Shown piece after piece: positions 8,919 through 19,033 of a stretch of 64,000 nucleotides of DNA. The DNA lies in assembly GCA_965223865.1 (NCBI GenBank), contig OZ245020.1, forward strand, positions 192,001 to 256,000, in the 5' to 3' direction. Made by a program: the position numbers and the translations under genes. The stretch is from Nitrosarchaeum sp. Lineage in GTDB: Archaea; Thermoproteota; Nitrososphaeria; Nitrososphaerales; Nitrosopumilaceae. The notes beneath the pieces are model-generated. The model saw nothing but the letters and a program-made list of their open reading frames with translations. It had not been told where the DNA came from and did no database searches. Numbering within the stretch: the first letter of the stretch is position 1; every line of letters starts with the position of its first letter.

Positions 8919-10076
8919 TTAGTCGATTCTTTGAGATTCTGAGATTTTCCAGCAGTGATCATAAGTAAACAAATCAACACCACCAAGTCTGTCAATCCAT
9001 TTAGGAACTACTTCATCAGTGCATTGTTGTGTTATTGTATCAGCATAGATTTGGAACACTAGCCAAGGATTAGAGAATCCAACTTCTTGTCCTATTGCCA
9101 TAAAAGATACTTCTTGGTTGGCTTTAGCTGCACTAGCTTGAATGTCTTGGAAGTATTCTTTTTGGATTTGAACATCTTCAGGAGTTCCAAGACGTGTCAA
9201 GTGTCCTCCAACTAATATATCAAAGTCATATTCTAGAACTTTGTCATGTGCTGCAAGAAATTCTGGAACATCTTGTGCCATTGCCAAATCTTTGAATGGT
9301 GTCCATCCAGGGAAGATTACATCAATTAACATCAGAACTTTTTGGTTTGGAGCATAGATGAAGATGTTTCCTGGTTCATGCATTGGTCCATGATATGCCA
9401 ATTCTAATCTTTGAGTTCCAACTTCAAGCGTGTAAGTATCCTCAAATGTTACAGTTGGTATTGGTCTATTAGGATCATTTCTTTTTGAAAGCGTGTCAGC
9501 TGCTTCTTGATGTGCTATGTATACTACATCATCAGGAAACATGTTCATTGCTCCTACATGATCATTGTGAGTATGGCTGTAAATTACATGAGTAATTGGT
9601 TCTTCAGTAACTTCGGCAATTGCTTTGAGATAGTTTTCTCCAATTGATGGAGGAGCATCAACTACAATAACTCCTTTTCCAGTTGTAAGAAACATTGCCT
9701 GGTATGCACCTTCAGTAACCCAGTAAAGTCCATCTTTGATTTCTTCAACCAAATATCCTTTGGAGTAATCAATTTGAGGACCTATTGATGTTTCAGGAAG
9801 TGGTGCTGCTGTTCTCATCTTTTCAGGATGTACCTCAAACATTGAGGCTAAAACTTGCATATTTGCAGAGTCTTCAAGAATTGTTCCCCATCCACGTTCA
9901 ACTAAAGCAGATGCAGTGGAGGGAGTCACACATGCAATTCTTCCATGAGTGCTTTCCATCCAAATTTTGTCAACACAAATTGGAGAGGAATCAGCATTTA
10001 CATCTAAGATAGAATTTGAGAAAATGATTCCTGATGTTAAAATTAACAATGACAAAAACACGTAATCAGATTTCAA
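8919..10076 (-). CDS. Secreted MBL-fold metallo-hydrolase with N-terminal Cys module
   Basis: SHTHNDHVG (HxHxDH), later H, D and GGH ligands; signal peptide; TTG start at 10076 inferred. Confidence 0.85.
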   Translation of the reverse strand: MKSDYVFLSLLILTSGIIFSNSILDVNADSSPICVDKIWMESTHGRIACVTPSTASALVERGWGTILEDSANMQVLASMFEVHPEKMRTAAPLPETSIGPQIDYSKGYLVEEIKDGLYWVTEGAYQAMFLTTGKGVIVVDAPPSIGENYLKAIAEVTEEPITHVIYSHTHNDHVGAMNMFPDDVVYIAHQEAADTLSKRNDPNRPIPTVTFEDTYTLEVGTQRLELAYHGPMHEPGNIFIYAPNQKVLMLIDVIFPGWTPFKDLAMAQDVPEFLAAHDKVLEYDFDILVGGHLTRLGTPEDVQIQKEYFQDIQASAAKANQEVSFMAIGQEVGFSNPWLVFQIYADTITQQCTDEVVPKWIDRLGGVDLFTYDHCWKISESQRID

Positions 10077-10101
10077 ACTATTTGAAATTGTGTTTAGTAT
10101 C

Positions 10102-10998
10102 TTAAAAGTCAATTCTTCCCATCTCCCCATTTTGAAAATCCTTGATTGCTTGCTGTAATTCTTCTTCAGTATTCATCACAAATGGACCGTATCGTTTTAC
10201 TGGTTCTCCAATTGGAGTTCCCCCTAACAAAAGTAATTCCAAAGATTCTGTTGCGTCACTAGGGTTAGAGAAAGTAATCTCGTTTCCATTGTTTTCAAAG
10301 AATACAGCTTGTTCCTTTTTTGCAAGTTTTTGTTCAATACCAAATAATCCCTGACCTTGTGCAATGTATGCAAAGGTGTTGAAATTATTTGGAATTTCTT
10401 GTTTAACTTGAGCTCCTGGTTGCAATGAAAAATGCAAATACATTATGGGAATTTTAGTATCAATTACTGCCTTTTTTCCCATTGATTGACCAGCAATTAC
10501 CTTTACACGAACTTTACCGTCTTTACTTTGAGAGACAGGAATCTTATCTGATGGAATCTCTTGATAACGTGGCTTTGTCATCTTATCTTTTTTTGGTAAG
10601 TTAACCCATAATTGGAATCCATGTAGTCTCCCACCTTTTTGTGCAAATTTGTTTTCTGGCATCTCAGAATGAACAATACCAGATCCTGCAGTCATCCATT
10701 GCACATCTCCAGAATGAAGTTTACCTGAATGTCCTTTGGAGTCTTTATGCTCAAAAGAACCATCAATTACGTATGTTACAGTCTCAAATCCGCGATGAGG
10801 ATGTGCTGAGGCTCCTTTTGCTTCTCCTTTTTCTAATATTACAGGTCCCATCTCATCTAATAACAAGAAAGGATCAAAATCTCTTAAAGCATAATTTGGG
10901 ATTGGTCTATGTACAGTAAAGCCATCGCCTTCAAGAGTAGTTTTAGCAGTAACTATCTCTGAAACATTTCTTTGGTTGGATTTCTGAACTTGTGTCAT
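10102..10998 (-). CDS. Pirin family protein
   Basis: DPFLLLD, HPHRGFETVTY, QWMTAGSGIVHSE and GPFVMNT motifs. Confidence 0.95.
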   Translation of the reverse strand: MTQVQKSNQRNVSEIVTAKTTLEGDGFTVHRPIPNYALRDFDPFLLLDEMGPVILEKGEAKGASAHPHRGFETVTYVIDGSFEHKDSKGHSGKLHSGDVQWMTAGSGIVHSEMPENKFAQKGGRLHGFQLWVNLPKKDKMTKPRYQEIPSDKIPVSQSKDGKVRVKVIAGQSMGKKAVIDTKIPIMYLHFSLQPGAQVKQEIPNNFNTFAYIAQGQGLFGIEQKLAKKEQAVFFENNGNEITFSNPSDATESLELLLLGGTPIGEPVKRYGPFVMNTEEELQQAIKDFQNGEMGRIDF

Positions 10999-11073
10999 GA
11001 GAAAAATTACGTATTTTATTATATAATCAGGCTGTCTACTTTGTATTGCAAAGCTTACCCCTAGGAGATTATC

Positions 11074-11616
11074 ATGCCAACTAAAAATACAGAGACTGCT
11101 TCGTTTAGGTTGGATTCAGATAGTTTAGAGAAGCTCAGAAAAGAAGCTGAAGACAACGATTTGAGTCTCAATCAATTGCTAAATCAAGTAATTGGAAATC
11201 ATGTGAATTTTCGCTCTGTTGCAAAATCAGCTGGTTTTATGACAATCCCAAAACCTGTTCTCAAAAGAATCATGGGAAAATTCTCTGAAGAGGAAGCAAG
11301 AGAAATCGGAAGAGAACATTCTGAAAAAGATGCAGAATCTATTCTTTGTATGCTTAGAAATGAATTCAATGTAGATGATTTTCTAGACACAATGGAATAT
11401 TGGGTCAAGGATGCAGGTTTTTCAATTAGACATGACGTTGAAAATGATATTCACAAGTATGTAATTCAGCATGAACTTGGAAAAAACTGGTCATTATACA
11501 TGTCAGAGTTTATCAGCCAAACAATAGAAAAAATGACTCGAAGAAAAGTAGAATCACGAATTACAGACAATACAGTTGCATTTACTGTCGATAAATCAAA
11601 AGTGGTTGAAGGATAG
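11074..11616 (+). CDS. Putative transcription regulator (N-terminal ribbon-helix-helix-like)
   Basis: TASFRLDSDSLEKLRKEAEDNDLSLNQLLNQVI; divergent from pirin. Confidence 0.6.
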   Translation: MPTKNTETASFRLDSDSLEKLRKEAEDNDLSLNQLLNQVIGNHVNFRSVAKSAGFMTIPKPVLKRIMGKFSEEEAREIGREHSEKDAESILCMLRNEFNVDDFLDTMEYWVKDAGFSIRHDVENDIHKYVIQHELGKNWSLYMSEFISQTIEKMTRRKVESRITDNTVAFTVDKSKVVEG

Positions 11617-11897
11617 GCTCACAGGCCAATAGTCGTTTTGCAAATATTGGCATAATAATCACTGCTTGTTGTTAATTGAAAATCTGTGATTCTACTTTCT
11701 TAAATTTGATTTTTGAACCAGAAACTGTAATGTTGGTGAAGAAAAAAGGCCTACTCCTATAATCACAGCACAACATGTATGGGGTATAGATAAGGACCCA
11801 AAAAGTGGTATAACGTTACAGTTTATAGATTCATACTTGTTTGGAAACTAATGAAAGTTTAGCTATACAGTTTTACGCATGGTTTATGGATTAGAAT

Positions 11898-12233
11898 CTA
11901 CTCAAATTGTAAATTCCATTGCTTTGACCAACGTCTTATTAGAAAAATTGCAAACAATATCGTTCCTATTTGAACTCCTACTGAAAATATGAATTGGTTA
12001 TCATCTACTCCATAGTAAAAAATCATGACATTTGTGAATCCTTCCACCAAATCTTCATCTTCTGTGGGCAAAAAAACAGATGATGCAATTGATACTGGTA
12101 TTGCTACAACAAGAATCATTATCATCAGATATTTTCGTAGTTTTTTTACTCGATATGCTGCATACATGTCAAGAATCGGAATTATGCAGAAAATTGTTTG
12201 AATCGTCAGGTCTACTTTTCCTTTTGCAGGCAT
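11898..12233 (-). CDS. Small membrane protein
   Basis: Three hydrophobic segments. Confidence 0.7.
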   Translation of the reverse strand: MPAKGKVDLTIQTIFCIIPILDMYAAYRVKKLRKYLMIMILVVAIPVSIASSVFLPTEDEDLVEGFTNVMIFYYGVDDNQFIFSVGVQIGTILFAIFLIRRWSKQWNLQFE

Positions 12234-12350
12234 GGTTTTATGAAAATATGATGATTAATTATACTTGCTACTCAAAAACAGTTCAGGCCTATGTGGAATT
12301 GAACTCAAAAAGAGGATACTTTATGAATATCTAATTTGGAGACGAATAAA

Positions 12351-12998
12351 ATGAAATTTTTTATTATGATACTTCTTGCAATTTTGGTTTCAGGTACTTT
12401 TCTTATATCTAACATAAGTGCAGAAAAACAATTAGAACTCTTGGTAAGTCCAATCATCCCAAAACTTGTCCATTCTGATGAACCTGTTGATTCTCTGATA
12501 ATTCGAGATGTTAACAACAGCCCTGTTTGGGATGGTGCACTATATCCGATTGTTGGGATTGATTTTGTTGAAGGAAATGCATATCACATTATTGCAAAAA
12601 AATCTGATGATTTTCAATTTCCTGAAAATAAAAAATATGAATTGATTGAAATTAAACATATTTTCAAACCTCATAAACCATATTCTTGGAAGAGTCTTTG
12701 TGCTCCTGGGTATCTCATAGATCCTCATGGCGATGATTGTGTGTTTGTTTTTAGGTGTAGTGAAGATGCATATCCAGGAAGACCATGTATCATAAATTGG
12801 ACAGAACAAGATTATCTTAGACCGTTACACCAACAAAAAGTAGGAATATTGCCCGAAGATACAATTTGTTTGGAAAATTTACAATTAATTATTGACAATG
12901 ACAACACTCCGGTTTGTGTAAAACAATCCTCTGTTGAAAAATTGTTGGAACGTGGTTTCATACTTGGAAAAAATAACAATGATTCACCATACGATTAG
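12351..12998 (+). CDS. Exported protein, array gene 1, C-terminal C...CV...KLxxRG module
   Basis: Signal peptide MKFFIMILLAIL; ends CLENLQLII...PVCVKQSSVEKLLERGF. Confidence 0.75.
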   Translation: MKFFIMILLAILVSGTFLISNISAEKQLELLVSPIIPKLVHSDEPVDSLIIRDVNNSPVWDGALYPIVGIDFVEGNAYHIIAKKSDDFQFPENKKYELIEIKHIFKPHKPYSWKSLCAPGYLIDPHGDDCVFVFRCSEDAYPGRPCIINWTEQDYLRPLHQQKVGILPEDTICLENLQLIIDNDNTPVCVKQSSVEKLLERGFILGKNNNDSPYD

Positions 12999-13006
12999 TC
13001 TAGAAA

Positions 13007-13759
13007 ATGAAAACTAGAGTTCTAATCGTTCTTGGTATAATTTTGGCAGCAACCACTATGACTGCTTTTTTTATTTTTCCTGGTGTTTCCCACTTTGTAT
13101 TAGGCAATGATACTCTGACAAATCAAAATCTGGATGTACATCTGAATGTTACTGGAATCAAATCTCACTATGAAATTGGTGAGCCTATTGCATTTTCTGT
13201 TCAAGTAAAATCACTGGGAAAAACTGTGCCCTGGCCGCAATATCGCATTTACCAAGATTACGTGGACATTTCCTCCGAACCAGTCTATTCCAGAATGTAC
13301 ATGACTCCAATAGAGCCAGAAGACAGACAAAACTCATTTGAATGGAGAGAGAAAACCTGGAATTTTCCTCTAGAGGATGATGACCCAATCAGGTTTTCTG
13401 ATAAAGGAAACTATACTCTCCGTGTAGACGTTGATGCAAAAAAACATGCTTTGGTTGATTTTCAGATAGTTGATTACAAAAATCCAGAAAGAGATGCCAA
13501 ACTGGATGCTGGATACAAGCTGTATCCTGGTGTTGGTTGGGTACCTCCTGATGAACTAGAAAATCAACAGCCGCTCTACAGGGTCAATCCAGACAATCCT
13601 GGAGAACTAATTTTAGATGTTGATGCGATGCAACAAGTTCAGGAGATTTTAGATTATTGTGGTCCTCCAAAATATCAGGGATTTGCATATGGTCTGGAAT
13701 ATTCCAATGGAACGCATGTCATTGACAACAATTCTTGCGAATGGAGAAAAATAAAATGA
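13007..13759 (+). CDS. Exported protein, array gene 2 (Ig-like YxxGE segment)
   Basis: MKTRVLIVLG signal/anchor; GIKSHYEIGEPI...GNYTLRV. Confidence 0.8.
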   Translation: MKTRVLIVLGIILAATTMTAFFIFPGVSHFVLGNDTLTNQNLDVHLNVTGIKSHYEIGEPIAFSVQVKSLGKTVPWPQYRIYQDYVDISSEPVYSRMYMTPIEPEDRQNSFEWREKTWNFPLEDDDPIRFSDKGNYTLRVDVDAKKHALVDFQIVDYKNPERDAKLDAGYKLYPGVGWVPPDELENQQPLYRVNPDNPGELILDVDAMQQVQEILDYCGPPKYQGFAYGLEYSNGTHVIDNNSCEWRKIK

Positions 13760-14148
13760 AAACCAGCAAGCTGATCATGACAGGAATTTTGGGAGTCATA
13801 CTGTATGTTGTTGTGATGTTTTCTTTTCTGATATTTGTTGCCTCGCCGCTCCAGCAACAGGCAATGATGAAATACGAATCAACTGATCTTGCAAAACAAT
13901 TTCTGGAAACCTATCCTGAGTCGGGAATAGTGGCAACTTCTGGCGATTTTTTTGAGAAGCATACGAGTTTTACATATTCTAAAAATGCCAGATGGGTTTC
14001 GTTGACATTTTCTGAGGGAATTGATGGTCAAAAAACAGTCTACAAGTGTGAAAGAATCACCTCCTCACAGGAACCAGCAGAGATATTCTACTTCGAGGAC
14101 CCCTCTCCTGAAACCATCAAAAACAACGTATGTGGAGAATATGATTAG
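13756..14148 (+). CDS. Membrane-anchored protein, array gene 3
   Basis: MKTSKLIMTG plus a TM helix; ATGA overlap with the previous stop. Confidence 0.75.
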   Translation: MKTSKLIMTGILGVILYVVVMFSFLIFVASPLQQQAMMKYESTDLAKQFLETYPESGIVATSGDFFEKHTSFTYSKNARWVSLTFSEGIDGQKTVYKCERITSSQEPAEIFYFEDPSPETIKNNVCGEYD

Positions 14149-14151
14149 AAA

Positions 14152-15228
14152 ATGAAAACCAGACTCTTGATACTCCTTGCATCTGTTGGATTGTTGGTTT
14201 TGATTCCACACGCATTTGCCTCCGAATCATTCCATGGAACCTCAAGTTTTGAGAATGCCCCTTTAGAACTAACCCCGGGAAAACCGACAAAGTTTGAAAT
14301 AAAATTCCGATACACAGAGGGCCCATACGCCCTAAGCAATCTTTCTCCAATAATTGATGTCAGTCCTGCCAGTGCCATCCCAACGGTTCGAATTGATACA
14401 GAACCGCTTGAAGGAATTACACAAGGTCAAGTTGCAAGGATTCCTGTAACAGTTACAGTAAACCCAAACATAGACCATGAAAAGATATTTCTCAGCATTT
14501 CTTTTACTGGGAATCATTTTTCTAGTCGCTCTGATGCATTTTACAAAAGCTCTTGGACAGATTCAATTGCATTTGATATTGCTCCAAAAGACAAGGCGGA
14601 TATTTTTGTAGACTATGAAATCATTCCATGGGAAGATTTTGAATATGAAATCATAGGAAAGGGCGCAATATTCAAAAATGATCTAATGGGACTGGCAATT
14701 CTGGAGGCAGGAACACAATATTTTGCTATCGTAAAGGCTGAATTTACAGAATCAAGTTTCGGGGACAAACCAACAGCAGTTGATGCAACAGCAGGATACG
14801 CAATCAAGAAAGGTGACCACATACCACGCCCGCCAATGCATGAAAATGCAACAGATAAGGAGCATATGGAATTTTCAATGAAACAGCAAAAACTAATTGA
14901 AGAATTTCCTAAACAAAGTTCAATAGAAGACTCGTATGACTTTGTAGTTGACGTTAAAAACCCATTTTACATCAAATTTCCATTTGTAGTTGAGGAATCC
15001 GGACAGTACACAAGACAGTTCTATAGGACAACTCATATCTTTGAAGGTCCTAGTGGATCTGCTATGGGCGGTCTTGTTGTAGTTGACAAATTCAGCAAGG
15101 CAGTTGATGAAAACAGCGTATGCAAAAATGAAGATTTTAGGCGCCTGATAAAACATGATTATTCCACAGTAGTATGTGTTACGGGAGAAACGGCTTGGAA
15201 ATTAATAGGGCGTGGGTGGGGAATATAA
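14152..15228 (+). CDS. Exported protein, array gene 4, C-terminal C...CV...KLxxRGW module
   Basis: MKTRLLILLA...HAFA signal peptide; ends CKNEDFRRLIK...VCVTGETAWKLIGRGWG. Confidence 0.8.
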   Translation: MKTRLLILLASVGLLVLIPHAFASESFHGTSSFENAPLELTPGKPTKFEIKFRYTEGPYALSNLSPIIDVSPASAIPTVRIDTEPLEGITQGQVARIPVTVTVNPNIDHEKIFLSISFTGNHFSSRSDAFYKSSWTDSIAFDIAPKDKADIFVDYEIIPWEDFEYEIIGKGAIFKNDLMGLAILEAGTQYFAIVKAEFTESSFGDKPTAVDATAGYAIKKGDHIPRPPMHENATDKEHMEFSMKQQKLIEEFPKQSSIEDSYDFVVDVKNPFYIKFPFVVEESGQYTRQFYRTTHIFEGPSGSAMGGLVVVDKFSKAVDENSVCKNEDFRRLIKHDYSTVVCVTGETAWKLIGRGWGI

Positions 15229-15836
15229 AAACTAGAACTCAAATCATATTACTTTCAATTATTTTCATTGTAGGTTCTGTATCGATACTTTATGCAGTTC
15301 AGATTCCTCACTATTCTTTGGAGATTAAAGGAATGAAAGATACGTACCATATTGGGGAACAATACTCATTTTACTATACATTATCAGGATTTGGACACAC
15401 ATGTCATTCTTGGATCGTGTCTTATCCTGATCAGAATGGAGAGTTTAATCAAGCTGGAGAAGCTATTGATTGTTCTAGACCTACCAACAAAGAACTTTCT
15501 TATGATTCTAGAAAAGACTCTAGAATATTTTCATCCAAAATTCCAGAAATTGAAGGCAAATATAATGTTACAGTATCACTAGAAGATTTAGAACCTGTAA
15601 TTTATGAATTCAGAGTTATATCTTCCTCTCAGAATGCCTATGAATTAGATGAAGCGTTGTGTATAGGAGGAAGAGGTTACATTGTTAATGACGAATGTGA
15701 ACGAATTGGAAAATATGATTCTGTTACAGGACTTCCAATAGTTGAAAACAAAGAACAATGTGACATGTTAGAGGGCAAGTGGGATGAAAAACAAAAAACT
15801 TGTGATTCAAAATATGGAAAAGAAAATGAAAATTAG
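15225..15836 (+). CDS. Exported protein, array gene 5; start codon reads ATA (mutated ATG or non-canonical start)
   Basis: ATA-AAA-ACT-AGA = (M)KTR then a hydrophobic stretch; GMKDTYHIGEQY...GKYNVTV resembles gene 2. Confidence 0.65.
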   Translation: MKTRTQIILLSIIFIVGSVSILYAVQIPHYSLEIKGMKDTYHIGEQYSFYYTLSGFGHTCHSWIVSYPDQNGEFNQAGEAIDCSRPTNKELSYDSRKDSRIFSSKIPEIEGKYNVTVSLEDLEPVIYEFRVISSSQNAYELDEALCIGGRGYIVNDECERIGKYDSVTGLPIVENKEQCDMLEGKWDEKQKTCDSKYGKENEN

Positions 15837-16029
15837 ACTCTTGATTGTTGCAGGGATTGTTATTTTCTTGGTTGGGATTTCTGTATTGGCATATGAGATA
15901 TTTGGAGATTTGAATTTTAAACTTAGTTCAGACATAGAAGTTTCAATAATATTTTATGTGATAGTTCCGGGATTGGCAATTTCTGGCATAGGCATTGTTT
16001 TAGAGTTTGCAAAAAAGGAGTGTGATTAA
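15826..16029 (+). CDS. Small two-TM protein, array gene 6
   Basis: MKIRLLIVAG; two TM helices. Confidence 0.7.
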   Translation: MKIRLLIVAGIVIFLVGISVLAYEIFGDLNFKLSSDIEVSIIFYVIVPGLAISGIGIVLEFAKKECD

Positions 16030-16491
16030 TGAAAACATATCCTATCCCTATAATTATCTGTTACTGTTCTAGTGGCATATTTTTCTATTTCATCAACAGC
16101 TATGCAAGAAAATAGTTTATCAAAACAATGCGACATTCCATATGATGTAAATTTTATAGAAAGAAGAGGAGTACCTTCAGCACCCAATGATGGAAAGCCA
16201 CACTATTCAATTGCAGAAGAATTTTCAATTTTCTATACTGTTCCAATTGGAGAATTTAGTGTAGATGATGTCTCTCATTCTTTAATATTGAAACCAGTAC
16301 CAACTTCGCATGGTTACATCATAATGTGTGATCCTTTACCTGTTTTAGAAAAAAGATTTGAGACAAAAATGCATGGATTGTTCGTTCTTGTAGACAACGA
16401 AGAGATTGAACCCAATTTGGTAAATAATGTGTTAAGAATTGATGTTAGTGGCAACACTAGCGTGGAGATTATAGGATTCAGGTTTGTTTGA
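16029..16491 (+). pseudogene. Exported protein, array gene 7, frameshifted in the signal peptide
   Basis: ATG AAA ACA at 16029 (TAATG overlap) is out of frame with the 16072-16491 ORF; a shift near 16052-16058 restores MKTY...SVTVLVAYFSISS. Confidence 0.6.
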
Positions 16492-16560
16492 AAATGAAAA
16501 CTATGATTTTTGTCATTTCAATTATTCGCGAAATTAAAAAAATAAAAAAGAACAGATATG

Positions 16561-17610
16561 TTATTCCTCTACTATGAACAAACCTATCATCCCTGCATCT
16601 GCATGGCCAACCACATGGCAATGGAACAACCAAATTGCGGGTTTGTCGGGCTTGACAATGAATGACTCTAGCGTTCCCTGAACTAGCGGAAATGTCTGCG
16701 AAGTTATTGTAGTACCTCTCTCGTTTGTGCTTGAAATCATCTTGTTTCCGTGCAGATGAAATGAATGAATTTGCTCACCAAGATTTGTAACGTGAAACTC
16801 AACTGTTTCTCCAACCTTTGCCTTGTAGACTGGCAGTGTATAATTGAACTGCTCAACAACGCCATCCAGTCCTTCTTCTGCAAAGATTTCTTCAAGAGCC
16901 TTTTCTCCGCCTGGTACACCCATTCCGTTCATGATATAGTATGGCACGGGTCCCTTCTCCATTCTTTCAACGTCATGGCCTATTTCTGCCATCACGATTG
17001 GAATGTGTCTGTCAATGTATGGTCTTGGGGGATTTCTTTCGATTATGATATTTCCATAAAGACCCTGCAAAATATGGTCCTTGATTCCAAGGCCCTTAGA
17101 TGCTGCATGGTCATGGAAAAATGTCGTTCCCCAATCATCTACATTGTATTCATACGTCCATTCCCCTCCTGGTGGAATCATTGAGCCTGCTCCAACTCCC
17201 GTGATTACGTTTACTGGGGATCCGTCATGTTTAGGATCATAGTCACTCATGTGGGCATGGAAGCTGTGAGTCACGTCATGATTGTTGATTACCCTGACTC
17301 GCAGCAGGTCTCCTTGGCTTGCCAATAGAGTCGGTGCGGGCACTGTTCCGTTGTATGTCCAAGCGTGCCAGACTGCGTTGTCTGATACTTGAATGTCTGT
17401 CTGCTCAATTATCAACGTATACTCCCTGACTGGCTGTTCCTCAGCTTTGGCAACCTGTGGATGTAAATCAGATACGCCTTGCGTCTGAACATCAGAGACA
17501 TTATGTGTTTCTGCGTTTAGGTTTGGCAAGAACTGAATGTTTCCTGTTGCTGCTACAATTAAAATTGCAAGCAGGATTGGAATTCCTATCAAACCAATTT
17601 TTTTCTGCAT
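16561..17610 (-). CDS. Two-domain multicopper oxidase (secreted)
   Basis: HSFHAH, FFHDH, HSFHLHG and WLFHCHVVGHADAGM copper motifs; signal peptide. Confidence 0.92.
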   Translation of the reverse strand: MQKKIGLIGIPILLAILIVAATGNIQFLPNLNAETHNVSDVQTQGVSDLHPQVAKAEEQPVREYTLIIEQTDIQVSDNAVWHAWTYNGTVPAPTLLASQGDLLRVRVINNHDVTHSFHAHMSDYDPKHDGSPVNVITGVGAGSMIPPGGEWTYEYNVDDWGTTFFHDHAASKGLGIKDHILQGLYGNIIIERNPPRPYIDRHIPIVMAEIGHDVERMEKGPVPYYIMNGMGVPGGEKALEEIFAEEGLDGVVEQFNYTLPVYKAKVGETVEFHVTNLGEQIHSFHLHGNKMISSTNERGTTITSQTFPLVQGTLESFIVKPDKPAIWLFHCHVVGHADAGMIGLFIVEE

Positions 17611-17804
17611 AATGACTTTCTCTGTGTTGTTAAATTAAATCAAAAGTTGTTTCTCCGTTTTAGCAATTAACAGATGGATTCTTATGGGATTTCATATCTC
17701 TGAACTGTAACAAACTTTTCTTAGTTCTTGATCCTGCGAATAAACTAAACAATGAAACCTGAACTGATGTCCATGTTGTCTAATTTAGATTCAAATTCTT
17801 ATAT

Positions 17805-18152
17805 TTACAATAGCATATTATCGTCTAGTTTTCCTATTATTTCATTTCTTTTCTCATTATCGTTAATTCGTTTGATAAATTCTTTAATTGATCTTCTGAC
17901 ATATTCTGCAATTTCTCCACGTTCTACTCTTTCTTTATGAAATGACAGAAACCTCATCACATTTGCTGTAACCCAACTGTTTCCGTTCTTTTTTGATTTT
18001 GAGATGAACTGTTTTGCTTGCTCTGCTAGGTTGCCTTGCAGTTCTAGAAAATCAAAAAAGTTTCGCATCCTTCTTTTGTATCGGTCTTTAGTAGCATCGC
18101 TCTTCATTGCATACAGGAACAATTCCAATGGTTCTGATTCGTATTCTGCCAT
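17805..18152 (-). pseudogene. Truncated tyrosine integrase (N-terminal part only)
   Basis: YAMKSDATKDRYKRRMRNFFDFL...ERVERGEI resembles the N-terminus of thaumarchaeal integrases as I recall them; starts 50 bp from the tRNA 3' end; no catalytic R-H-R-Y domain. Confidence 0.65.
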
Positions 18153-18202
18153 TTTTCTGCCTTCTGTTACACTTGGAACCAATAAAAGAACCACTAAAGG
18201 AG

Positions 18203-18276
18203 CGGGTCTAGAGGGATTCGGACCCTCGACAGCAGGATTAAGAGTCCTGTGCGCTACCTGGCTGCGCCATAGACCC
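18203..18276 (-). tRNA. tRNA-Lys(CTT)
   Basis: GGGTCTA...TAGACCCG acceptor stem; anticodon arm CAGGA-CTCTTAA-TCCTG. Confidence 0.96.
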
Positions 18277-18335
18277 ACGAAAATAAAACTGCCTAGAGTT
18301 GTTATTAACCTTAAGATTGTAAAATAAAGGAAAAT

Positions 18336-18938
18336 TTAGTTCTGAGCTTTAGCTTCAATTTCACTGTACTTCTCTAGAATTGCTGTAAGTGCAGTTGAAA
18401 CTGGTACGTCATTCATTTTTTTCTTTTCGGCAAGAAGTTTCTGGTATGCATCTAGTGTGATATATACTGGAATTGAACCATTTCCTTCAAGAAGTCCTCT
18501 AACGTTATAGAGTGCTGTTTCCATTCCTCTTTCAGCAGACTTGGCAAACTTTGCCTTATCCATAATTGCTCCTAATGGACCAAATGGCATTTCATAATCC
18601 ACTGTCATAGTAACTCGCGTAAGATTATCACCAAGTGATTTGAATTCATTGGTTATTTGCCAGTGTTTGAATGGTCCTTCAATTTGCTTTGCAGAAATCT
18701 TTTCATTTCGAACAAATTCGATTGTTTCACAGTCCCATTCTAGGCGTTTACCGCTAAAGTCACCAATAATTCTAAATGTTGTACCAACACCCATTCCTTC
18801 TTTGATATCCATTGGAACTACTGTCATTCCTACTGCATCAGTTTTAATTTGATCAGAAACATGCTCTGGTCTTGCAAAGTAGGTAAAAACATTCTCTACG
18901 GGGGTTTTAACATCGATTGATTTTGTTACGACGGTCAA
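18336..18938 (-). CDS. SRPBCC/polyketide cyclase family protein
   Basis: SIDVKTPVENVFTYF, GPFKHW and VDYEMPFGPLG motifs. Confidence 0.85.
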   Translation of the reverse strand: MTVVTKSIDVKTPVENVFTYFARPEHVSDQIKTDAVGMTVVPMDIKEGMGVGTTFRIIGDFSGKRLEWDCETIEFVRNEKISAKQIEGPFKHWQITNEFKSLGDNLTRVTMTVDYEMPFGPLGAIMDKAKFAKSAERGMETALYNVRGLLEGNGSIPVYITLDAYQKLLAEKKKMNDVPVSTALTAILEKYSEIEAKAQN

Positions 18939-19033
18939 CGATTCAATGTCTTGCCAATAAGGATTTAAAGGTTTTGAAGATTTTCCTATGTAAATTGATT
19001 AACACTATATTATTCTTAGAATATGGTTAATTT

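Follow-up and report, generated by a model that had tools for sequence, protein, structure and literature searches.

Cassette-like arrays of exported-protein genes joined by a conserved start-codon junction in Nitrosarchaeum and related archaea

The array and its genes

We analyzed a stretch of 64,000 nucleotides (nt) from Nitrosarchaeum sp. (assembly GCA_965223865.1, contig OZ245020.1, positions 192,001-256,000 of the forward strand), referred to here as the window, and within it an array of exported-protein genes at 12351-16577 whose boundaries have a conserved DNA sequence in common. The array consists of seven open reading frames (ORFs), all co-oriented on the + strand, plus a terminal 27-codon stub, and corresponds to about 204-208 kb in the 2.01-Mb source genome (G000). 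The boundary sequence, which we call the junction, is about 30-35 nt long, overlaps the start codon of the next gene and has the consensus GGAG-N5-AGAAA-ATG-AAA-ACT-AGA-CTT-TTG-ATA-AT. An initial annotation of this DNA, made from its letters alone, had described seven tightly packed genes joined by such a motif and had proposed an integron-like system; the eight junction strings are all present in the sequence where it had placed them. The genes and junctions are as follows, protein lengths being given in amino acids (aa).

12351-12998, +: g1, exported protein of 215 aa that begins with a signal-like segment and ends in a WING-49 domain (NF058652, E 2.2e-16)
12351, +: weak junction copy of g1, AATAAAATGAAATT, with GGAG at -13
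12999-13034, +: junction 1, TCTAGAAAATGAAAACTAGAGTTCTAATCGTTCTTG, with stops in all three frames; the sole copy with a 5-bp inverted repeat and the reference copy of repeat family D1
13007-13759, +: g2, 250 aa, starting MKTRVLIV, without a family match
13740-13780, +: junction 2, ATGGAGAAAAATAAAATGAAAACCAGC, of the ATGA type, the g2 stop TGA overlapping the g3 ATG; repeat families D2 and D12
13756-14148, +: g3, 130-aa membrane-anchored protein, a cassette found in four contexts
14133-14177, +: junction 3, TGGAGAATATGATTAGAAAATGAAAACCAGACTCTTGATACTCC, of the TAG-AAA-ATG type, the best-conserved 30 nt of the g3 cassette
14152-15228, +: g4, 358-aa exported protein with signal peptide (AFA/SE), beta-sandwich domains and a C-terminal WING-49 domain
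15216-15252, +: junction 4, a degenerate copy, GTGGGGAATATAAAAACTAGAACTCAAATC, with ATA in place of ATG and a likely start at GTG 15216
15216 (GTG) or 15225 (ATA) to 15836, +: g5, exported protein of about 203-206 aa, ending ...ENEN
15812-15853, +: junction 5, GGAAAAGAAAATGAAAATTAGACTCTTGATTGTTGCAG, of the 11-nt overlap type
15826-16029, +: g6, 67-aa small membrane protein, starting MKIRLLIV
16029 / 16072-16491, +: g7, with a motif-type start AAGGAGTGTGATTAATGAAAACA (MKTYPIPIII...), a stop after 28 codons and a 139-codon body in the +1 frame
16483-16577, +: terminal motif copy TTTGAAAATGAAAACTATGA and 27-codon stub (stub ORF 16494-16577)

Consecutive genes are spaced by +8, -4, +3, -4 (or -13), -11, -1 and +2 nt. 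This is the geometry of a translationally coupled operon, in which co-oriented genes have the upstream stop near or overlapping the downstream start. The upstream endings ...KIK, ...GI and ...ENEN, each followed by a stop, are as the initial annotation had read them. Its description of seven co-oriented tight genes stands as to layout and needs correction at two of them, in that g5 has no ATG and g7 is split between two frames. Where other copies have ATG, junction 4 has ATA at 15225, and GTG at 15216 is the candidate start of g5. A g4 homolog on metagenome contig L020 has AATATGATGAAAACTATA (with AATATGATGAAAACT) at the same position, which suggests a loss of 3 nt from junction 4 of the window. 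At its other end, g5 reads through the next motif and terminates at a motif-internal TAG. In g7, the frame of the motif start encodes MKTYPIPIIICYCSSG... and the +1 frame carries ...SVTVLVAYFSISSTAMQENS...; the two frames joined would give a normal signal peptide, and g7 is probably a frameshifted gene. Across the g7 region (15837-16478), contigs of the public sequencing runs X5 and X6 do not differ from the window.

The cassettes appear, as judged from their sequences, to encode mostly unrelated exported or anchored proteins. "Exported" denotes a call by our own hydrophobicity heuristic, which is not a signal-peptide predictor. The seven proteins gave nothing meaningful in Pfam, PHROGs returned no family for eight proteins, and no toxin or immunity family was found among the array proteins in scans of Pfam, NCBIfam and PHROGs. 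The one family recognized was WING-49 (NCBIfam NF058652, cut-off 22 bits), which matched g1 at 59.7 bits and g4 at 28.3 bits and none of the other five. This C-terminal domain of about 49 aa (C...CV...KL..RGW), at 12822-12962 in g1 and 15127-15222 in g4, is also present in at least 10 other signal-like proteins of the genome; its name has no mention in the searchable literature. A C-terminal domain of about 50 aa is all that g1 and g4 have in common with other exported proteins of the genome, and within the genome a full-length paralog exists for g3 only (64% identity).

For g4 we found 96 database homologs at 45-76% identity, the named ones being from Nitrosopumilus species or metagenome-assembled genomes (MAGs), and no full-length ortholog among 40 relatives, a sample with one genome per outside genus. 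A scan of metagenomes with g4 gave one 1.4-kb contig only; a scan of genome contigs gave 0 loci with g4 alone and 4 loci with an alignment of the g4 family (A1). The AlphaFold model of g4 (mean pLDDT 69.2, pTM 0.38) has an N-terminal helix, beta-sandwich domains and a small C-terminal domain. A Foldseek search with this model gave no more than tandem beta-sandwich ectodomains of a generic kind (integrin legs, complement MG domains, adhesins) at TM 0.2-0.26, and ESM Atlas gave a weak CARDB/NPCBM-like lead at 0.81, under the 0.9 level. The model suggests a beta-sandwich ectodomain and no closer assignment. Outside the array, the metallo-beta-lactamase-like gene at 8919-10130 holds a string similar to WING-49, CVTPSTASALVERGWG.

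The junction sequence and its distribution

An unprompted repeat search of the window returned as its top family (D1) six 34-nt direct-repeat copies at 12345, 13001, 14146, 15219, 15820 and 16488, and all motif copies in the window are direct repeats on one strand. Within the 64 kb of the window, AAAATGAAAAYYAG with up to one mismatch is found five times, on the + strand in each case and only from 13004 to 16504; shuffled controls gave 1.17 +/- 1.04 matches and reached five in 0 of 100 shuffles. Genome-wide, AAAATGAAAAC has 24 copies in 2.01 Mb, four of them in the 4.3 kb of the array. From 84 junctions in four genomes of genus g13 we derived the consensus tttGGAGaAatAGAAA ATG AAAACTAGAcTtTTgATAATtaTTg, in which the information content is concentrated at -13 to -10 (GGAG), at -5 to -1 and from the ATG to about +25.

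The GGAG had been read in the initial annotation as a ribosome-binding site, and it does lie 9-18 nt upstream of five starts in the window. At -13 to -10 it contributes 0.34-0.61 bits in the 84 g13 junctions, with no G enrichment in 382 other signal-like genes of G000. It is a short Shine-Dalgarno match, because the 3' end of the 16S rRNA reads ...GGATCACCTCCT. A wider complementarity of the motif to the 16S 3' end was considered and dropped, since by eye it comprised only the upstream GGAG and a 4-nt TGAT.

The junction contains a stop in each reading frame: TAG at -6, TGA overlapping the ATG, and TAG or TAA at +9. We examined 66 unique candidate starts; in 33 of them the motif holds the end of an upstream ORF (60 codons or more), and this end falls at -6 in 10 cases, at ATGA in 11 and at +9 in 12. 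The 84 g13 junctions are distributed over the same three types as 14, 24 and 18, with 28 untyped, and the same three spacings occur in 9, 71 and 12 of 470 non-motif gene pairs of G000. Upstream genes read the AGAAA as TAG/AAA, as ..E-K-R-K and stop, or as ..E-N-E-N and stop. Because this sequence (AGARA in the wider set) is read in three different frames, it is conserved as nucleotides and not through a constraint on the upstream protein.

The coding half of the junction is likewise conserved at the nucleotide level. A crude gene call with our own scripts gave 2,317 genes in G000, 397 of them with a signal- or anchor-like N-terminus. An MKT start is present in only 24 of these 397, and the MKT signal-like genes cluster at 205-208, 1026-1055, 1685 and 1974-1977 kb. 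For a codon test we picked 15 genes of G000 by the peptide pattern MK[TI][RKNSGE]x[LFV][ILVM] alone, and used the 382 other signal-like genes as control. Thr3 was encoded by ACY (ACT or ACC) in 14 of 14 cases (control 0.43, P 6e-6) and Leu6 by TTG in 10 of 13 (control 0.21, P 3e-5), and Leu5 was CTY in seven of eight. The commonest Thr codon genome-wide is ACA; AAA and AGA are preferred codons. Positions -5 to -1 read AGARA in 13-14 of the 15 genes (per-base 0.13-0.43 in the control), in line with the conservation 5' of the ATG that the initial annotation had noted, and this regardless of the upstream frame. A hand count of 49 sites fitting a degenerate back-translation in five g13 genomes gave ACT in 48, TTG in 45 and ATA in 43.

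We folded the seven 81-nt junctions of the window as single-stranded DNA. One, the 13007 copy, folded better than its shuffles (z -2.86), whereas the other six had z of +0.06 to +1.49, four of them above 1. The inverted-repeat arms are only A4/T4, and none of the 25 longest inverted repeats in the window is associated with a junction. The inverted repeat at 13007, pointed out in the initial annotation, is thus real and is peculiar to that junction, and the lack of attC-type hairpins that it had also remarked on is borne out. The low structure fits an open translation-initiation region and argues against attC-like hairpins.

We then estimated how widely the motif occurs. The 15-mer AGARAATGAARACYA has 13 copies in G000, 11 in the relative G004, two each in G003 and G006 and one in G001, and it has none in G005 or in G002, a genome that is 60% complete; the reversed pattern, used as control, gave 0-1 per genome. 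Twelve of the 13 copies in G000 fall in four clusters, and the core copies are all at gene starts except for one unrelated 66-aa gene. Of 401 Nitrosopumilaceae genomes examined, 39 have the 21-mer ATGAARACTAGRCTYTTGATA, and these belong to 4 of 27 genera (genus g1, 2/6 plus G000; genus g13, 25/99; genus g17, 8/31; genus g38, 3/19), figures that include the unpublished genome G275 with two matches and that become 38/400 overall and 7/30 in genus g17 when it is left out. The other 23 sampled genera do not have it (for example g10, 0/63; g36, 0/41; g40, 0/45), the reversed control gave 0 in every genus, and the 21-mer has 0 matches in viral contigs. An earlier view of the motif as genus-specific, based on a first sample with one genome per outside genus, was withdrawn when the wider draw gave four genera.

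The tandem clustering for which the initial annotation had suggested scanning the family was found, G216 having five 21-mer copies in a stretch of 18 kb and G222 six in one of 28 kb. Regions in G216, G222, G228 and G298 (L036-L044) hold arrays of dozens of motif-started genes over 20-47 kb, far larger than that of the window. At g4-ortholog loci in MAGs labelled Nitrosopumilus sp., the same DNA motif stands at the ortholog and at its neighbours, and the neighbours differ in every genome; the MKT[RK]... start is kept in 18 of 23 retrieved g4 orthologs. The array of the window is best explained as one small instance of a lineage-wide organisation of exported-protein genes in Nitrosopumilus-like archaea.

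Gain, loss and reshuffling of cassettes

The clearest exchange between genomes lies in the large array of G000, where 1026422-1028381 matches G004 109392-111351 at 99.1% and 1031982-1052732 matches G004 111315-132068 at 98.5%; the two matching segments overlap by 37 nt in G004. A 3,637-bp block of four genes, g3p-B-C-D, is present in G000 and absent between genes A and E in G004. Upstream, the A/E junction of G004 equals the A/g3p junction of G000 over 60 of 60 nt, and downstream it equals the D/E junction of G000. These two G000 junctions have only AGAAAATGAAAACTA in common, so the crossover lies inside this shared 15-mer. Elsewhere in G004 the B-C-D block recurs at 93% identity, beginning 1 nt before its ATG, with a downstream neighbour that differs from +12 onwards. 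The junctions D/E and D'/F match (with two mismatches in 60 nt upstream) through ATGAARACTAA and then diverge. We also observed that the 44 nt before the first gene of the large G000 array (C1:1026500-1026543) recur at 97.7% identity at G004 C1:138688-138731, before the relocated B-C-D block. From sequence, these 44 nt seem to form the "head" of an array, perhaps a promoter or leader, that has been used again at another array.

Homology limited to single cassettes was found as well. The g3 cassette occurs in four contexts, in the window, at G000 1028350, at G004 132096 and at G003 220997. Its mean pairwise identity is about 0.3 outside the cassette, 0.64 at -13 and 0.57-0.87 through the gene; at the 3' junction it peaks at 0.92 and 0.87, and it is 0.57 at +11 to +25 of the next gene before returning to about 0.3. 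The 30 nt of junction 3 match at 93% in G003 and G004. Past their first ~25 residues there is no similarity among the genes that follow g3 (g4 and genes of 511, 343 and 224 aa), nor among the genes downstream of the D family (455, 357 and 213 aa).

Motif copies followed by a short dead ORF (stubs) are found at window 16494, at G000 1685337, at G004 132492 and 144945, and on L020, and make up 12 of the 84 junctions in the g13 arrays. The g1 homolog of G004 (144938-145449) is followed by a 39-codon stub in place of g2, and the g4 homolog on L020 by an 8-codon stub. G228 has the internal stub MKTRLLIIIGE, followed by a stop, twice, at 235282 and 263922.

We compared array regions by BLAST and obtained 89 high-scoring segment pairs (HSPs) with 352 internal ends. 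Of these ends, 80 are no more than 15 nt from a motif ATG (1.6% at random) and 117 no more than 30 nt (3.1% at random), a 10-14 fold enrichment overall; because BLAST extends into any shared motif, these counts are confounded and show coincidence with the motif, not the position of strand exchange. Shared stretches have a median start at -4 and a median end at +9 of the next ATG, and the crossover or boundary positions are spread over about -20 to +30 and not fixed at one point. Logan contigs from the partial runs X5-X8 end or branch at 13796, at 15837 (in junction 5, where contigs of runs X5 and X6 break) and at 16478, and in one X5 record 15814-15940 is replaced by 18 letters; these contigs are short and too fragmentary to count as evidence.

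Thus the proposal has held up that the genes act as cassettes and that, from genome to genome, they are gained, lost and reordered with breaks at the motif. The competing possibility named with it, that the motif is just MKT codons in an A-rich leader with gene order fixed or broken elsewhere, does not hold, because MKT is rare and clustered, conservation is at the nucleotide level and breaks fall at the motif. We reject the generic-leader explanation on the 24/397 MKT count, the codon bias, the AGARA and the patchy distribution over genera.

The proposal of integron-like machinery and of a tyrosine recombinase co-occurring with the motif fared worse. Matches to PF00589 in G000 are at 860764, 865741/866048, 1627454 and 1856771, with none within about 50 kb of the arrays and the nearest at least 58 kb away, other recombinase and transposase families not having been searched. 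In G004 the nearest such gene is about 29 kb from the array. Each of five relatives has 3-4 PF00589 genes, G005 with no motif copy included. Together with the lack of hairpins and the spread of crossover positions, this speaks against such machinery near the arrays.

The setting of the array itself is given by the following features.

11640-18040: variable island
17805-18152, -: integrase-like fragment, a 115-aa ORF corresponding to the N-terminal quarter of a family of 430-445 aa
18202-18276, -: tRNA-Lys(CTT) at the island edge
16561-17610, -: two-domain multicopper-oxidase-like gene, convergent on the array

The flanks of the island are conserved in G004 (10000-11639 at 91%, 18041-19000 at 96%), where they lie 56 kb apart with different content and 0 motif copies between them. 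G004 also carries counterparts of the integrase N-terminal fragment (47% identity) and of the small membrane protein encoded at 11898-12233 (37% identity). The initial annotation had placed the array in a tRNA-anchored island with an integrase remnant. This is reasonable as to the tRNA-Lys edge and the N-terminal fragment, but the 115-aa fragment beside the tRNA-Lys has no catalytic domain, and the family assignment is weak, with one of five scanned members passing the Pfam Phage_integrase cut-off, two sub-threshold and two giving nothing. The arrays elsewhere in the genome have no link to a tRNA as far as examined. Two further ideas about the island were dropped. Its GC content is not atypical (0.367 vs 0.344 for the window), and the 180-aa gene at 11074-11616, with a weak ribbon-helix-helix N-terminus, is not an array-linked regulator, having seven paralogs scattered in G000; its protein is 95.5% identical in G004. 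Within the integrase fragment, 18043-18057 reads TCTAGAAAATCAAAA, a 14/15 match to junction sequence at 12999-13013; it sits where G004 homology resumes (18041), and the rough chance expectation in a 6.7-kb stretch is about 0.02. The terminal stub of the array and the multicopper-oxidase-like gene share 17 nt at their 3' ends, and the latter gene has an ortholog in G006 at 91% protein identity in another context.

Translational restart, recombination and other explanations

Our combined findings suggest, with moderate confidence, that the junction is a module for translational restart and signal-peptide initiation at which, in addition, recombination shuffles the cassettes. Each gene would be a cassette bounded by the same junction of about 30-35 nt, which would end the upstream frame in any phase, through the TAG at -6, the ATGA-type TGA or the TAG/TAA at +9. 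Translation would restart 3 to 11 nt from the stop by termination-reinitiation, on an unstructured A-rich stretch behind the GGAG, and the MKTRLLI that the junction encodes would give a Sec-type signal peptide or anchor its charged n-region and initial hydrophobic residues. Since the same sequence stands at every boundary, it would be the place of crossover, and recombination within it would remove and insert cassettes and carry them from one array or strain to another. The pathway would most simply be the cell's general homologous or short-homology recombination, because no dedicated recombinase was found. We infer in addition, from sequence, a coupled polycistronic transcript and a variable surface or secreted repertoire. 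According to the part of a review available to us, coupling is documented in archaea and is most efficient at spacings of -4 to +3 nt (PMC12548453), a range that includes the -4 and +3 spacings of the junctions.

Several points weigh against this reading. The same source, as far as available, does not give the 11-nt overlap as a known efficient coupling spacing (PMC12548453). One indel only (G000 vs G004) was resolved to a crossover inside the motif, and the other boundary evidence is confounded. Codon identity among g4 orthologs is 31/40 over codons 1-8 and 614/972 over the rest of the gene, a difference that is not significant. The gene and signal-like calls come from our crude scripts, and the compared genomes are related rather than independent. 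Finally, the same consensus is found in four genera, whereas passive, homology-driven homogenisation should drift between lineages. A consensus fixed to this extent makes a sequence-specific reader plausible, be it a recombinase, an RNA- or DNA-binding factor or the initiation machinery, and because passive exchange leaves it unexplained, the next two explanations keep appreciable weight.

The better placed of these, which we consider fairly unlikely, takes the motif to act chiefly in cis-regulation, as RNA or as DNA. A protein or small RNA might bind it and so co-regulate, localise or process mRNAs that encode exported proteins, or it might be a special module for internal initiation where other genes lack a Shine-Dalgarno sequence, with recombination incidental to its repetition. 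A sequence fixed across genera, its restriction to exported or membrane proteins, GGAG enrichment at unstructured junctions set against no G enrichment in the 382 control genes, and the retention of MKT[RK]... in most g4 orthologs would all follow. No trans factor or antisense copy was found, however, the core copies being at gene starts bar the one 66-aa gene, and regulation alone leaves the stubs, the three-frame stops and the cassette-limited homology unexplained.

More doubtful still is a dedicated site-specific system, a "start-codon integron", in which a recombinase encoded elsewhere would recognise the junction and move single-gene cassettes, the stops, ATG and signal start making any insertion expressible. 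It would account for a consensus that is exact in four genera down to synonymous and non-coding positions, for the about equal use of the three stop frames, for motif-only stubs inside arrays and at array ends, for cassettes in many contexts and for the crossover in the 15-mer of the sole resolved indel. Against it stand the distance of PF00589 genes from the arrays, within the limits of that one-family search, and their presence in motif-free G005; the absence of a hairpin or clear inverted-repeat architecture, with one of seven junctions folding; boundaries spread from -20 to +30; and the lack of joints or circles in the run contigs, which were short assemblies. The more specific version, for which we would give similarly long odds, has a dedicated enzyme recognising AGAAAATGAAAACTAGACTTTTGATA as a site that overlaps the start codon and inserting or excising single exported-protein genes, each of them terminated in any frame, re-initiated and given a signal peptide. 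If true, archaea that rank among the most abundant organisms of the ocean would have their own counterpart of the integron, one that works without hairpins and is given over to the repertoire of the cell surface.

Ordinary operons of paralogous secreted proteins, with a preferred signal peptide, AT-rich codon bias and gene boundaries that mimic breakpoints because genes are the surviving units, are largely refuted and very improbable: tight spacing is indeed common (434 of 1,371 co-directional pairs with a gap of at most 8 nt; 15 runs of at least five genes in G000), AAA and AGA are preferred codons and some cassettes are true paralogs (g3) or share WING-49, but MKT is rare among signal-like N-termini, the codons depart from usage (ACT in 48/49 though ACA is commonest), AGARA is conserved independent of frame, the 21-mer is absent from 23 of 27 genera, and the precise 3,637-bp indel between motif copies is left unaccounted for. 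Only two of the 15 runs consist entirely of signal-like genes, the array of the window and that at 1026-1033 kb, and both carry the motif.

Restart and recombination at one junction, the reading we favour, can be set beside known systems. Translationally coupled operons resemble the arrays in their stop/start spacing of -11 to +3 nt, their A-rich unstructured context and sometimes a short Shine-Dalgarno sequence. In contrast, ordinary coupled pairs have no common 30-nt sequence, export restriction or three-frame stops, and they usually encode subunits of one complex, whereas the proteins here are unrelated. Integrons combine an adjacent tyrosine recombinase, IntI, an attI site and arrays of cassettes bearing attC sites, which are imperfect inverted repeats 3' of the cassettes that fold as single strands; the cassettes are promoterless and depend on a common promoter. 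The likeness lies in co-oriented arrays of compact, mostly unrelated cassettes with a repeated boundary, and in a content that differs between close relatives with breaks at that boundary, as seen in the 3,637-bp indel, the cassette-limited homology and the HSP ends. An integron boundary lies 3' of its cassette, whereas the boundary here extends over the start codon and signal peptide of the gene that follows; neither a hairpin nor an adjacent integrase is present, and each cassette has its own translation start. The array is integron-like in outcome but, with neither an adjacent integrase nor attC sites found, it is not an integron.

In Mycoplasma vsa-/vlp-type loci and the orphan cassettes of polymorphic toxins, a conserved coding segment at the gene boundary is the recombination point, joining a constant leader to many bodies. 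Those systems work by inversions, by a single expression site with silent start-less copies, or by swaps of C-terminal toxin tips with immunity genes. Here, unlike there, the cassettes are co-oriented, complete and presumably co-expressed, and direct repeats on one strand, genes that all have their own start and the lack of an adjacent recombinase do not fit inversion of the shufflon or vsa type. The nearest published archaeal analogue that we found, as far as the accessible part of its description goes, is the VARTIG modules of Thermococcales (Makarova et al. 2021, PMC8416519). These are islands of membrane or secreted proteins, many with immunoglobulin (Ig)-like beta-sandwiches, whose arrangement differs per locus; shuffling was inferred there and, in the part available, no integrase identified. 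They differ in being centred on one large Ig protein with a swapped C-terminal domain and in belonging to another phylum, and the same part of the source describes no conserved nucleotide junction or start-codon motif (PMC8416519). For the junction motif itself we found no earlier description in the searchable literature, a scope that excludes subscription-only papers and supplementary files.

Nitrosopumilaceae ammonia oxidisers are among the most abundant marine microbes, and their strains differ chiefly in islands of hypothetical exported proteins that are still poorly understood. A single junction of ~30 nt gives these islands a grammar, marking cassette boundaries and the points of exchange or loss between strains, and would account for the back-to-back expression of unrelated genes where there is otherwise little Shine-Dalgarno signal. 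It offers a testable case of translation-start architecture and genome plasticity encoded in one element, a sequence handle with which to catalogue the variable surface repertoire in genomes and metagenomes and, if a specific factor binds the motif, a candidate for a new kind of recognition site. As a side observation on cassette ends, some upstream cassettes finish in a common C-terminal membrane anchor and basic tail (..GLVGIVVGFLVIKKWRKRK, then a stop), which resembles a C-terminal sorting signal and whose last codons are the GGAG and AGAAA of the next junction (G000 C1:1030222-1030291; G004 C1:132040-132109).

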